The position numbers were made by a program, and so were the translations under genes. A DNA stretch of 22,642 bases from a virus (lineage: Duplodnaviria; Heunggongvirae; Uroviricota; Caudoviricetes): the IMG/VR virus record IMGVR_UViG_2778261067_000001; one strand, 5' to 3'. The notes under the pieces are model-generated. The model was not told where the DNA came from, did no database searches, and saw only the letters and a program-made list of their open reading frames with translations. Positions 19,226 through 20,798 of this stretch are shown here, piece after piece. Position 1 is the stretch's first letter, and the number at the start of each line of letters is the position of its first letter.

Positions 19226-19321
19226 ACCATAACGTCCGGCTTCTCTCACTCCTGAGCCGGACTGCATTGGTTTAATAAAAACCATCAACAATTGTGATTT
19301 AGATATTCGGAACCATTCAAA

Positions 19322-19347
19322 TATAACAAAACCCCGTAAAAACGAGG
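19322..19347 (-). terminator. Terminator-like hairpin downstream of the gnsB-like gene
   Basis: Minus-strand RNA CCUCG UUUUUA CGGGG followed by UUUUGUUAU (one G-U pair in the stem). Confidence 0.45.
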
Positions 19348-19376
19348 TTTATGGATAAATTTTATTATTGAATACA

Positions 19377-19553
19377 TCAGATTAAATTAATCTTGACATC
19401 ATAGCTTTCAAGACCCGTCATTTTTTCCCGTGCGGTAAACTGAATACTGGTAACTTCTTTCCCGGTCTTTTTCTTAAGTTCAATAATTTTTTTTGTTATA
19501 TATTCAGAAATATCTGCTTCTGCTTTTGTTTTTAAGTTTTCAATATTCATCAT
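19377..19553 (-). CDS. gnsB: GnsB-like small protein (Gns family), 58 aa
   Basis: Not in the ORF track (under 60 aa). Minus-strand translation MMNIENLKTKAEADISEYITKKIIELKKKTGKEVTSIQFTAREKMTGLESYDVKINLI; ATG preceded by AAGAGGAA; closely resembles E. coli GnsA/GnsB as I recall them (...TGKEVSEIRFTAREKMTGLESYDVKIKIM). Confidence 0.7.
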   Translation of the reverse strand: MMNIENLKTKAEADISEYITKKIIELKKKTGKEVTSIQFTAREKMTGLESYDVKINLI

Positions 19554-19721
19554 TTCCTCTTTTAGTCTGTTATGACTTTCCAGTTACACAGTAAGTCGAT
19601 TATATGGTGCAAACGTGTAAAAGATAAGATGAAACATCGCAATAATCAACATACGATAGTCTAAATTTTACACAAACAGACAAAGAGAATTTTCCTGAAT
19701 TATCAATACAATAGCATCAAA

Positions 19722-19994
19722 TCAACTCAAGAGCCTTATTGCTGCTTCCAGAATTTCTTCTGAAGTAACATGTCGATCCGCGGCTACATAAATGACTTTA
19801 TGATCTCCGGTCAGAGATGGAAACCCTGCGGCCATTACAGTAAGGTGTGTTTTTTCGCCATTTGGATATTCACGCATGATGGTGTTAACTCCAGTCATCG
19901 CTGGCACTACCACTGCTGGTTCAGAGTTAAAAAAAACTATGATTTTTTTCATGATGTTACCGTAGTATGTGAGTATCCATCGAATAGATACCAA
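19722..19994 (-). CDS. Hypothetical small protein (76-90 aa) between the cspI-like and gnsB-like genes; by synteny possibly the counterpart of Qin ynfN
   Basis: Track ORF begins at a TTG (19994) preceded by GGGAG; internal ATG at 19952 gives MKKIIVFFNSEPAVVVPAMTGVNTIMREYPNGEKTHLTVMAAGFPSLTGDHKVIYVAADRHVTSEEILEAAIRLLS. No recognised motifs; start and reality uncertain. Confidence 0.4.
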   Translation of the reverse strand: MVSIRWILTYYGNIMKKIIVFFNSEPAVVVPAMTGVNTIMREYPNGEKTHLTVMAAGFPSLTGDHKVIYVAADRHVTSEEILEAAIRLLS

Positions 19995-20016
19995 GCAAAA
20001 AAGCTCCCGAAGGAGC
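19995..20016 (-). terminator. Rho-independent terminator (GCUCC UUCG GGAGC + U6) downstream of the cspI-like gene
   Basis: Perfect 5-bp GC-rich stem with UUCG tetraloop followed by UUUUUUG on the minus strand. Confidence 0.6.
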
Positions 20017-20223
20017 CTTCATTTTCACTTTTTTAAATCCAACGACAGACGGCTGGCATTTAAGTATTGTGAAATATTATCAAATGTAATCATCATTGAT
20101 TTACAAAAGATACATTTTGCCCCGAAAGGATTCATGTCAGAAACATCAAAAGATGATGTTCTATACTGGGAACCATGACAACACGGGCATCTAAAGTGAA
20201 TATGGTTTGTAATATTGTCTACC

Positions 20224-20436
20224 TCAAAGCGCCACTACATGAACAGCGGCAGGACCTTTAGGTCCGTTCTCAATACCAAATTCAACTTCCTGATTCTCAG
20301 TTAATGTTTTGAAATCGTTGCTCTGAATTGCTGAGAAATGGACAAACACATCTTTGCTGCCATCTTTCGGCGTGATGAAACCAAAACCTTTTTCAGGGTT
20401 AAACCATTTCACTAAACCAGTCATTTTGTTAGACAT
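20224..20436 (-). CDS. cspI: Cold-shock protein, CspA family (CspI-like)
   Basis: 70-aa [73 protein letters not shown] with RNP1 (KGFGFI) and RNP2 (VFVHF) motifs. Confidence 0.92.
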
Positions 20437-20620
20437 AATTATTACCTTTTGAAGAAATTAGCCCTTGGGCAGAATGGTCCGAAAAAAAATATCAGAGAGA
20501 AAAACCAACAAGGAAATCTCAAGAGGTACAAATAATAAAATTATAACAATGACTGCTTCAGATAAATTTGTAACAAACCAGAACACCATTAACGCATGAT
20601 TAACCACCCATAGCAAGGAT
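20437..20620 (-). promoter_or_regulatory. Putative long AT-rich 5' UTR / promoter region of the cspI-like gene
   Basis: ~360-bp AT-rich non-coding gap upstream of cspI; CspA-family genes characteristically have ~150-nt regulatory leaders (established knowledge); boundaries not determinable from sequence alone. Confidence 0.35.
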
Positions 20621-20798
20621 TACTTTTGTAAAGAAAAACACAGCAATGAAAGAATAGCTTTATTTATTAATAAAACGTGTCATTCTGATTAAGACCTTTT
20701 ATCTTACCCTTAAGATTTCAGGAATTTTGGCTCATGGAAGAGTCCTTTTTATTTAAATTTTACATTCCGCGATGTAAATGTTCCGATTTAATATTACC

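Follow-up and report, generated by a model that had tools for sequence, protein, structure and literature searches.

The closest described relative of the locus analyzed here is ynfN (b1551) of the Qin cryptic prophage in Escherichia coli K-12, a gene listed as uncharacterised and with no reported function (PMC11551758). K-12 also carries a chromosomal cassette, cspG-ymcF-ymcE-gnsA, with a comparable arrangement of genes. Two kinds of described system place an intrinsic terminator next to translated sequence: a translating ribosome represses almost completely those terminators that are positioned a few base pairs past a stop codon, as in the tR2 position series (Li et al. 2016, PMC4824070), and in leader-peptide attenuators such as those of pyrBI and trp a short translated ORF overlaps the terminator.

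Our sequence, called the window, is the whole 22,642-nt stretch of a virus of the Caudoviricetes (IMG/VR record IMGVR_UViG_2778261067_000001). An ORF at 19722-19994 on its minus strand encodes 90 amino acids from a TTG, its longest form, and 76 from its first ATG (19952), as the initial annotation had recorded. Judged by sequence and synteny, which bear out an earlier guess made from gene order, the ORF is ynfN of a Qin-type lambdoid prophage in its intact 76-aa allele. We give a probability of about 0.8 to the reading that ynfN is the ATG-started distal cistron of a cold-shock moron, cspI-ynfQ-ynfR-ynfN, and that it is reached by read-through of a terminator. The gene is already named and annotated, and no new gene is described here.

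The window protein is 100% identical to the 76-aa YnfN of RefSeq, and PHROG 3425, a family of unknown function, matches it over residues 1-76 of 76 (E 7.2e-54). The surrounding region is identical to the RefSeq-annotated ynfN region of ATCC 25922 and 100% identical to that of many E. coli chromosomes, whose annotation reads gnsB-ynfN-ynfR-ynfQ-cspI; it is carried by 2150 of 5426 complete E. coli genomes. ynfN is also found in Tritos, 2H10, mEp460 and other active or inducible lambdoid phages. The order rrrQ-rzpQ-cspI-ynfQ-ynfR-ynfN-gnsB-ydfO is common to the window and loci L005-L009, and in the window ynfN occupies the family’s position in a moron of the lambdoid lysis region, with a csp/ymcF-like pair on one side and gnsB on the other. 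Assemblies L009 and L017, with homopolymer indels across the cassette, were left out as evidence. The flanking genes cspI and gnsB had been named correctly in the initial annotation, but the space towards cspI holds two genes, ynfQ and ynfR, of which it had missed ynfR. The features of the cassette are as follows.

20197-20582, minus strand: cspA-type thermoregulator, comprising a long 5' UTR and the cspI coding region (Rfam RF01766, 112.8 bits, E 1.2e-29)
20224-20436, minus strand: cspI, the cold-shock protein gene heading the cassette (Pfam CSD, E 1.6e-31; RefSeq)
20025-20213, minus strand: ynfQ, YmcF-like, 62 aa with four cysteines, AUU start (RefSeq; Pfam PF23641 YmcF-like, E 7e-32)
19957-20022, minus strand: ynfR, a small ORF of 21 codons (MKAPSGAFLLGIYSMDTHILR; RefSeq ‘small protein YnfR’)
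19995-20019, minus strand: intrinsic terminator, with an extended stem (20019-20012 / 20007-20000) around a GC core (20016-20012 / 20007-20003), from folding and Term-seq
19722-19952, minus strand: ynfN coding sequence, intact 76-aa allele with ATG start (MKKIIVFFNSEP...RLLS; RefSeq ‘protein YnfN’, WP_000720962.1)
19377-19553, minus strand: gnsB, the downstream cassette gene (Pfam GnsAB_toxin, E 3e-35)
19350-19329, minus strand: strong terminator after gnsB (terminator scan)

The gaps between cspI, ynfQ, ynfR and ynfN are 10, 2 and 4 nt, respectively, with gnsB 168 nt further downstream. The UGA of ynfQ is followed after 2 nt by the AUG of ynfR, and the UAA of ynfR after 4 nt by the AUG of ynfN, so that a stop codon a few nucleotides before the next start, the geometry of reinitiation, is found at both junctions. 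Of 24 distinct ynfQ contexts, 21 keep the ATT start. The thermoregulator probably marks the start of the transcript that reaches ynfN.

The K-12 Qin prophage has the same locus and flanking genes as the window, and the two differ by two substitutions and one indel in the 531-nt stretch from ynfQ to ynfN. The indel matters for the product: K-12 ynfN has a 1-bp deletion in a T8 run (window 19929-19936), which reduces its annotated protein to a 51-aa C-terminal fragment, whereas the window allele is intact. Since the K-12 allele is frameshifted, ynfN must be dispensable in the laboratory, and functional work on the gene should use strains such as ATCC 25922 or LF82. The deletion in K-12 and its relatives, together with many truncated YnfN variants in the protein database and the lack of a reported function, would fit a functionless, decaying prophage remnant kept by recent common descent only. 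We regard this as highly improbable, and it is largely refuted by the pattern of substitution. ORF length alone is not decisive for ynfN, because an antisense shadow ORF of 88 aa (19770-20036, plus strand) overlaps it; conservation settles it as a real gene. Among 62 ynfN-related loci from many genera, intact orthologues of 75-78 aa occur in more than 15 enterobacterial genera, and codon comparison places YnfN under purifying selection, with a median dN/dS of 0.11 over 234 pairs at which synonymous sites are saturated. The family alignment has ~23 invariant columns, the structure model is confident, and the gene is present in inducible phages, all of which speak against decay.

In the AlphaFold2 model (pLDDT 88.5), YnfN is a soluble domain of five strands and one helix. 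The initial annotation had recognised no motifs in the protein, and homology and HMM searches agree: YnfN belongs to no Pfam, NCBIfam or PADLOC family, PHROG 3425 being the only match. A YnfN profile returned nothing below E = 1 from PDB sequences, and no fold match was found despite the confident model. Against 1.84 billion representative proteins the profile gave only 47 hits; almost all of these were small proteins of comparable length with a single domain, and thus no distant annotated relatives emerged. In ~55 of the 62 ynfN loci the gene is preceded, on its own strand, by a csp gene, and this constant place suggests, from gene order, a role for YnfN alongside the cold-shock protein. gnsB lies downstream in only ~19 of the 62.

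The chromosomal cspG-ymcF-ymcE-gnsA cassette of K-12 has the same order as the window cassette, and its cspG, ymcF and gnsA are homologous to window genes. The same hairpin and T-tract lie 4 nt after the ymcF stop codon, and ymcE reads through the hairpin as RLPRGAFF where YnfR has KAPSGAFL. The segment from the hairpin to gnsA is ~280 nt shorter in the cspG cassette, and YmcE is not significantly similar to YnfN (blastp found no hit, and the hmmsearch score was -0.3). We rejected as unproven the idea that ymcE is a decayed ynfN paralogue, the hairpin and an ‘FFN’ patch being all that they have in common. A YmcE-like role for YnfN as an antitoxin for the GnsA/GnsB ‘toxin’ was also rejected, given its dissimilarity to YmcE and the small share of loci with gnsB.

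The hairpin between ynfQ and ynfN is a genuine intrinsic terminator, and a leaky one. On the minus strand, a T6 run (U6 in the RNA, 19997-20002) comes directly after the palindrome GCTCC-TTCG-GGAGC at 20003-20016, and folding gives a stem of 9 pairs capped by a cUUCGg tetraloop (20011-20008), with energies of -12.4 kcal/mol at 37 C and -18.3 at 15 C and a fold z of -3.4 for the hairpin region. A pattern scan listed the palindrome on the plus strand only, as the stem extension takes up part of the T-tract and the minus-strand copy was therefore missed. In K-12, which is identical to the window across the hairpin, Term-seq maps an RNA 3' end to 1638226(-), equivalent to window 19995, in the sequence ...GGGAGCTTTTTTGC (PMC7815308 supplementary file 1, M63 sheet). 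This end falls exactly after UUUUUUGC (PMC7815308 supplement), bearing out the initial annotation’s view of the hairpin as a terminator; it was called in one of three conditions only (M63) and not in LB (PMC7815308). The hairpin and T-tract form the best-conserved part of the spacer in Escherichia, in Citrobacter and at the K-12 cspG-ymcF locus, and the hairpin is kept with loop and wobble changes in Citrobacter and in that paralogous locus. Its position is likewise constant: 5 nt separate the ynfQ UGA from the first paired base, and alignment and sequence reading put this distance at 4-7 nt for the window, for the Citrobacter loci and for the ymcF locus.

Two further features bear on where YnfN begins.

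19953-19994, minus strand: the 14-codon N-terminal extension of the initial annotation, opening with TTG 19994-19992 and most likely outside the translated YnfN
19959-19961, minus strand: weak Shine-Dalgarno-like GGU at -9 to -7, 6 nt before the ynfN ATG and overlapping the ynfR stop codon (sequence reading)

On comparative sequence grounds, translation of ynfN starts at ATG 19952 and not at the upstream TTG. Homologues of 76 or 75 aa from more than 15 genera all align from the ATG (MKK/MIK), the N-terminal extensions found in homologue gene calls are mutually unrelated, and in most distinct upstream contexts an in-frame stop precedes any upstream start codon. The initial annotation had proposed instead a 90-aa YnfN from TTG 19994, with GGGAG in the hairpin as its Shine-Dalgarno sequence and initiation dependent on whether the hairpin folds. 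GGGAG does lie 9 nt upstream of the TTG, every Escherichia allele retains an in-frame TTG or GTG, and Prodigal-type gene calls giving 89-90 aa occur frequently in public assemblies (688 member sequences in P0002, 613 in P0003). In addition, four of the six variable sites in the 42-nt extension within Escherichia are third positions of the ynfN frame, which is weak evidence given so few sites and one allele with a nonsense change. The extension is not conserved outside Escherichia, however, being absent or stop-blocked in Citrobacter and all more distant homologues. Within E. coli, TTA replaces TTG in a ynfN allele of ~92% identity found in ~570 genomes, about a quarter of carriers, and in allele L070 a TAA stands four codons upstream of the ATG, although the annotation of ynfN is retained there. 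GGGAG is part of the terminator stem, as had been noted; it spans the loop and the 3' arm, and its four stem nucleotides are essentially always paired in the -12.4 kcal/mol fold. Moreover, terminated RNA stops 1 nt before the TTG, the extension nucleotides serve in another frame to encode YnfR, which has been detected experimentally, and RefSeq curators use the ATG. Together these observations speak against a TTG start and hairpin-controlled initiation, which we consider very unlikely.

The ATG itself had been described as lacking an obvious Shine-Dalgarno sequence. This holds insofar as the window offers only the weak GGU, but a G-rich element (GGT, GGAG, GGGG or AGG) is positionally conserved: almost every distinct upstream context listed for ynfN homologues has one at an equal distance.

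Passage of the transcription machinery and of ribosomes beyond the hairpin is documented by YnfR. The AUG of ynfR abuts the hairpin, which spans codons 2-7, and the frame reads through it. A YnfR-SPA fusion was detected in K-12 and was strongly induced by cold shock (PMC6001520); its tag lies downstream of the terminator. A preprint on ribosome profiling of small proteins does not mention these genes. Most of the 92% alleles have ynfR cut to 12 codons, and most Citrobacter lack its AUG, so translational coupling to ynfR is not a general requirement for ynfN.

The mRNAs of the cassette are regulated together. AZT induces cspI 6.5-fold, ynfQ 5.9-fold and ynfN 5.8-fold, and their dependence on SspA is 38-, 42- and 51-fold, respectively (PMC11228462); cspI and ynfN mRNA also track each other across growth phases (PMC7406224). 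Taken with the cold induction of the adjacent YnfR-SPA and the thermoregulator at the head of the cassette, this makes ynfN a candidate, by indirect evidence, for the cold-shock regulon. The near-identical ratios for these genes in two independent RNA-seq studies argue against a promoter of its own for ynfN, with or without gnsB, downstream of or within ynfQ, an arrangement that would make the hairpin the mere end of a cspI-ynfQ operon. A scan of this strand from cspI to ynfN found one promoter-like site (TTGTCA-17-CATCAT, 20181-20153, inside ynfQ), which could be read in favor of such a promoter. The match is weak, however (9/12; 2 such matches found vs. 6.7 expected in shuffled sequence), and a promoter there, upstream of the terminator, would offer no way around it; the U-tract and the ynfN ATG are only 42 nt apart. 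The same arrangement could also account for the Term-seq pattern in LB, with abundant 3' ends past gnsB and none called at the hairpin. The gnsB 3' end (K-12 1637558(-), approximately window 19326) was seen under each of the three conditions and is far more abundant than the hairpin 3' end in each (PMC7815308), and part of the downstream transcription therefore comes from another promoter. This is probably that of gnsB, as a perfect TATAAT at 19604-19599, downstream of ynfN, explains these ends better. A separate ynfN promoter is, in our estimate, unlikely.

Under the preferred reading of ynfN as a distal cistron reached by read-through, the hairpin and U6 would end part of the cspI-ynfQ transcripts, and ynfN would be expressed only from those that read through. 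With 5 nt between the ynfQ stop codon and the terminator, a ribosome completing ynfQ would sit over the 5' arm of the stem and thereby suppress termination, and CspA-family proteins may melt the stem in the cold. On the read-through RNA, ynfN probably uses the weak, positionally conserved GGU, and in Escherichia termination-reinitiation from ynfR, with its stop codon 4 nt upstream, may help.

The terminator resembles operon-internal terminators placed shortly past a stop codon, as in the tR2 position series (PMC4824070): it has a GC-rich stem with a UUCG tetraloop and U6, 5 nt past the stop codon of ynfQ, its 3' end has been mapped in vivo, and products of read-through have been detected. Unlike them, it lies inside a second translated ORF (ynfR), and its dependence on translation is putative. 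The overlap of a short translated ORF with an intrinsic terminator is also seen in the pyrBI and trp attenuators, and because of it ribosome position could decide whether the hairpin forms. In contrast to pyrBI and trp, no antiterminator pairing is evident in the folds and no regulatory codons were identified; furthermore, the AUG and frame of ynfR are not conserved beyond Escherichia, whereas the hairpin is. We accordingly did not classify the locus as a leader-peptide attenuator, and the ribosome that matters is more likely one that terminates on ynfQ.

No component of this layout is new, and its value lies mostly in correcting the ynfN start. Gene callers are split on the start of ynfN (76 vs. 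89-90 aa), and the comparative and Term-seq evidence decides the matter for the ATG. The compact succession of an AUU-start ynfQ, a terminator, a mini-ORF and ynfN offers a convenient natural case for ribosome-dependent read-through in cold shock. More speculatively, YnfN might be an unrecognised partner of phage-borne CspA-family proteins, its dosage set by a terminator that registers how tightly ribosomes trail RNA polymerase along ynfQ and that a Csp protein could melt; we give this a low probability. If true, the cassette would act as a feed-forward gate, with ynfN and gnsB opened only while the cold-shock programme is being translated.

The minus-strand ORF that the initial annotation had placed between cspI-like and gnsB-like genes, with a TTG at 19994 and a first ATG at 19952, was reproduced from the sequence, and the suggestion from synteny that it may be ynfN of Qin is correct according to the RefSeq annotation of the same cassette in E. 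coli ATCC 25922. The flanking genes are as described; the spacer on the cspI side is not empty and is filled by the annotated genes ynfQ and ynfR. In the ATCC 25922 annotation rzpQ and rrrQ come after cspI.

Features of the cassette (genes as annotated by RefSeq in ATCC 25922)
19377-19550, minus strand: gnsB, GnsA/GnsB family protein
19722-19952, minus strand: ynfN, 76 aa, ATG start (WP_000720962.1)
19722-19994, minus strand: long form of the ORF, 90 aa, TTG start
19957-20022, minus strand: ynfR, 21 aa
20003-20016: palindrome GCTCC-TTCG-GGAGC, followed in the minus-strand reading by T6 (19997-20002), G, C and TTG
20025-20213, minus strand: ynfQ, 62 aa
20224-20436, minus strand: cspI, cold-shock protein

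Positions 19300-20500 were matched by megablast in 2150 of 5426 complete E. coli genomes, mostly at an identity of at least 99%, and the same cassette occurs in lambdoid phages including Tritos, 2H10, mEp460_ev081, HannyBb, PhiR42_1 and PhiR63_1. In K-12 MG1655 ynfN is annotated at just 51 aa because one T is lost from a T8 run in codons 6-8 (window 19929-19936); the alignment identifies the window as the intact allele. The T7 form, present in MG1655 and other strains, shifts the ynfN frame after codon 7 and could reflect homopolymer slippage. Alignments shorter by 1 base were seen in about 8 of 40 evenly spaced rows of genome matches, and an indel in the T8 run may be common. An 88-aa antisense shadow ORF (19770-20036, plus strand) overlaps ynfN and makes ORF length alone unconvincing, so the case for a real gene must rest on genome comparison.

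A search of 5.8 billion proteins found only close relatives of YnfN (lowest identity 52%), and a profile search of 1.84 billion representative proteins returned 47 matches, nearly all of about 75 aa. Scanning one genome per species located 62 ynfN loci, in Escherichia, Shigella, Citrobacter, Enterobacter, Klebsiella, Kluyvera, Leclercia, Scandinavium, Phytobacter, Atlantibacter, Trabulsiella, Yokenella, Siccibacter, Silvania, Kosakonia and others. The 47 distinct YnfN proteins are 75-78 aa long and align from residue 1 (MKK, MIK or MSxK), with the motifs VFFN, YPNGE, SLTGDH, VAxDR and SxEEI invariant or nearly so in the family alignment. The median pairwise dN/dS is 0.11 (234 pairs with unsaturated dS); judged by sequence comparison, YnfN is a protein under purifying selection.

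The TTG start considered in the initial annotation is not supported by these homologs, which align from the ATG. In the E. coli variant at about 92% identity to the window (571 records in the 90-95% identity band), TTA replaces the TTG and a GTG occurs one codon later. In E. coli CB209, a C-to-A change at the equivalent of window 19965 puts an in-frame TAA into the extension, four codons upstream of the ynfN ATG, and ynfN is still a 76-aa CDS in RefSeq despite this stop. An in-frame stop precedes any ATG, GTG or TTG 5' of the conserved ATG in most distinct upstream contexts, and the N-terminal extensions in some YnfN gene calls are unrelated to one another. The sole point favoring the long form is that 4 of the 6 variable sites in the 42-nt extension (19953-19994) fall at third positions of the ynfN frame, and six sites are too few to outweigh the rest. 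The ATG had been described as lacking an obvious Shine-Dalgarno. The GGU at -9 to -7 is indeed weak, but its position is conserved: a G-rich element (GGT, GGTG, GGAG, GGGG or AGG) is kept at the same distance in nearly all distinct upstream contexts printed, which makes it a weak, positionally conserved Shine-Dalgarno. The ambiguity noticed initially is a real inconsistency among public annotations, as an upstream GTG/TTG start giving 89-90 aa is used in the automated call clusters P0002 (688 members) and P0003 (613 members) and the ATG in RefSeq.

The GGGAG assigned to the TTG does belong to the GCTCC-TTCG-GGAGC stem, comprising the last loop base and four bases of the 3' arm. In isolation, AUGAAGGCUCCUUCGGGAGCUUUUUUGC folds into a stem of 9 pairs capped by a cUUCGg tetraloop (-12.4 kcal/mol at 37 C, -18.3 at 15 C). 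The 101-nt region around the hairpin has a fold z of -3.4, and in a read-through context of 271 nt pairing of the four GGGAG bases that belong to the stem is essentially complete. K-12 Term-seq data include a minus-strand 3' end at 1638226 (flank ...GAAGGCTCCTTCGGGAGCTTTTTTGC), with 35,795 reads in M63 glucose and uncalled in two LB conditions (Adams et al. 2021, PMC7815308, supplementary file 1). Converted with an offset of 1618231 anchored on the ynfR coordinates, this is window 19995, one base before the TTG. The hairpin and T-tract are the best-conserved part of the ynfQ-ynfN spacer among Escherichia and seven Citrobacter species; from the T-tract to the ynfN ribosome-binding region no alignment was possible between the two genera. 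The loop varies from TTCG to TTAT or TTTAT in this comparison, and stem changes are one-sided (G-U to G-C, C-G to U-G). The same hairpin lies 3' of ymcF in the paralogous K-12 cassette cspG-ymcF-ymcE-gnsA. Kept across Escherichia, Citrobacter and the ymcF locus, and marked by the K-12 3' end, the hairpin is therefore a real, conserved terminator, as had been supposed; the proposal that it gates initiation at the TTG through the Shine-Dalgarno is not supported. Public annotation or published supplementary data already contain ynfN starting at the ATG, the small ORFs upstream of it and the RNA 3' end that maps to the hairpin.

Upstream of the terminator, ynfQ matches Pfam YmcF-like (E = 7e-32) and starts at an ATT (20211-20213, minus strand), 7 nt after a GAGG overlapping the cspI stop. 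Among 24 distinct contexts from several genera (loci L008-L064 of the compared genomes), 21 keep the ATT, one has ATG and one has ATC in its place, and the GAGG/AAGG overlaps the csp stop codon across these loci. It is unusual for a cold-shock cassette to contain a conserved AUU start, which may have a regulatory role, e.g., through IF3 discrimination. The ynfQ UGA (20027-20025) is 5 nt from the first paired base of the terminator; judged from the alignment and sequence, the corresponding spacing in the Citrobacter loci and at ymcF is 4-7 nt. The ynfR AUG (20022-20020) adjoins the stem; its frame crosses the hairpin and U-tract, encoding KAPSGAFL, and terminates with a UAA 4 nt upstream of the ynfN AUG. 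Chromosomally SPA-tagged YnfR was detected at a very low level at 37 C, with a strong rise after cold shock (VanOrsdel et al. 2018, PMC6001520). The tag is encoded beyond the terminator, so its detection shows that transcripts extend past the hairpin in the cold and are translated across it in the ynfR frame, not in that of the TTG. ynfR is poorly conserved, with a TAG cutting it to 12 codons in most 92% alleles and the AUG absent from most Citrobacter.

The statement that the ORF carries no recognizable motifs was borne out, as YnfN belongs to no Pfam, NCBIfam or PADLOC family in searches of each; it falls in PHROG 3425, a group of unknown function. An AlphaFold2 model from a 14-sequence alignment (pLDDT 88.5, pTM 0.76) has strands at 2-7, 14-18, 24-28, 34-45 and 53-58 and a C-terminal helix at 64-74. 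Foldseek found no structural match to it in PDB (best E 0.5) or BFVD (best E 0.06), and the YnfN profile matched no PDB sequence (best E 1.2). The calculated pI is 6.25 and the mass 8.3 kDa. ynfN is uncharacterized in a 2024 y-ome survey (PMC11551758) and was among the oxidizing-agent resistance genes in an ASKA overexpression screen that gives no mechanism (PMC8228696); the ASKA clone is the truncated K-12 form.

A same-strand csp gene lies upstream of ynfN in about 55 of the 62 loci, often with a ymcF/ynfQ homolog between, and this is the one robust association of YnfN, a genomic one. gnsB is downstream in just about 19 of 62, which argues against YnfN as a dedicated GnsB partner or antitoxin. 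In Enterobacter, Leclercia and Klebsiella-type loci (L021-L044) ynfN follows a divergent cspH-like/cspG-like pair. In 45 loci a 56-aa CxxC...CxxC ORF is found on the opposite strand, about 1.2 kb upstream of ynfN; in 16, an H-NS/StpA-like gene lies downstream (L033 and others, at about +730).

YmcE holds the position equivalent to YnfN in cspG-ymcF-ymcE-gnsA, adjoining gnsA, and has no detectable relation to YnfN. The annotated 76-aa ymcE (1848-2078 of the K-12 ymcE locus, L068) begins within ymcF and, like ynfR, crosses the shared terminator hairpin (about 1884-1910), giving RLPRGAFF in YmcE and KAPSGAFL in YnfR. Compared with ynfR plus ynfN, the ymcE region is shorter by about 280 nt, and it has no significant YnfN similarity, so ymcE may be either a true gene or an ORF formed when a ynfR/ynfN-like segment decayed.

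A much stronger K-12 3' end, at 1637558 (about window 19326), follows gnsB; it has 177,000-311,000 reads in each of the three conditions (PMC7815308), 5-9 times as many as the ynfQ-terminator 3' end called in M63. Its abundance in LB implies a further promoter, and a candidate for gnsB is the perfect TATAAT at 19604-19599 (minus strand), which has a poor -35 and lies downstream of ynfN, about 45 nt upstream of gnsB. This hexamer and the presence of gnsB 3' ends in all three conditions suggest that gnsB has its own constitutive promoter. Another K-12 3' end (M63) maps to window 20543, minus strand, 107 nt upstream of the cspI start codon and inside the cspA-type 5' UTR, and may be an attenuation or processing site in the thermoregulator. 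K-12 plus-strand 3' ends at 1638981/2 (about window 20750), present in all three conditions, fall at a terminator-like plus-strand hairpin (20729-20754) that is antisense to sequence immediately downstream of rzpQ; this implies an antisense transcript ending there.

The Rfam cspA thermoregulator match (20197-20582, 112.8 bits) covers the long cspI 5' UTR and coding region, and a scan of the coding strand from cspI to ynfN gave a single promoter-like site, which lies within ynfQ, upstream of the terminator, and matches weakly (9/12). In K-12 RNA-seq, AZT induces cspI 6.5-fold, ynfQ 5.9-fold and ynfN 5.8-fold, and SspA dependence is 38-, 42- and 51-fold, respectively (PMC11228462). Across K-12 growth phases, cspI (2.61/5.82/3.76/2.01) and ynfN (2.01/5.59/3.92/2.16) track each other (PMC7406224). 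The translating ribosome represses an intrinsic terminator almost completely when it follows the stop codon by a few bp, and termination efficiency does not peak until the distance exceeds about 30 bp (Li et al. 2016, PMC4824070). ynfN would thus be a distal cistron of a cspI-headed transcript whose terminator is probably leaky because the ribosome finishing ynfQ covers the 5' arm of the stem. On the read-through RNA, ynfN would be translated from its own weak Shine-Dalgarno, and in Escherichia it may also gain from termination-reinitiation after ynfR. CspA-family proteins were reportedly described by Bae et al. in 2000 as transcription antiterminators that melt hairpins; melting of this hairpin by Csp proteins could add a cold-specific component to ynfN expression.
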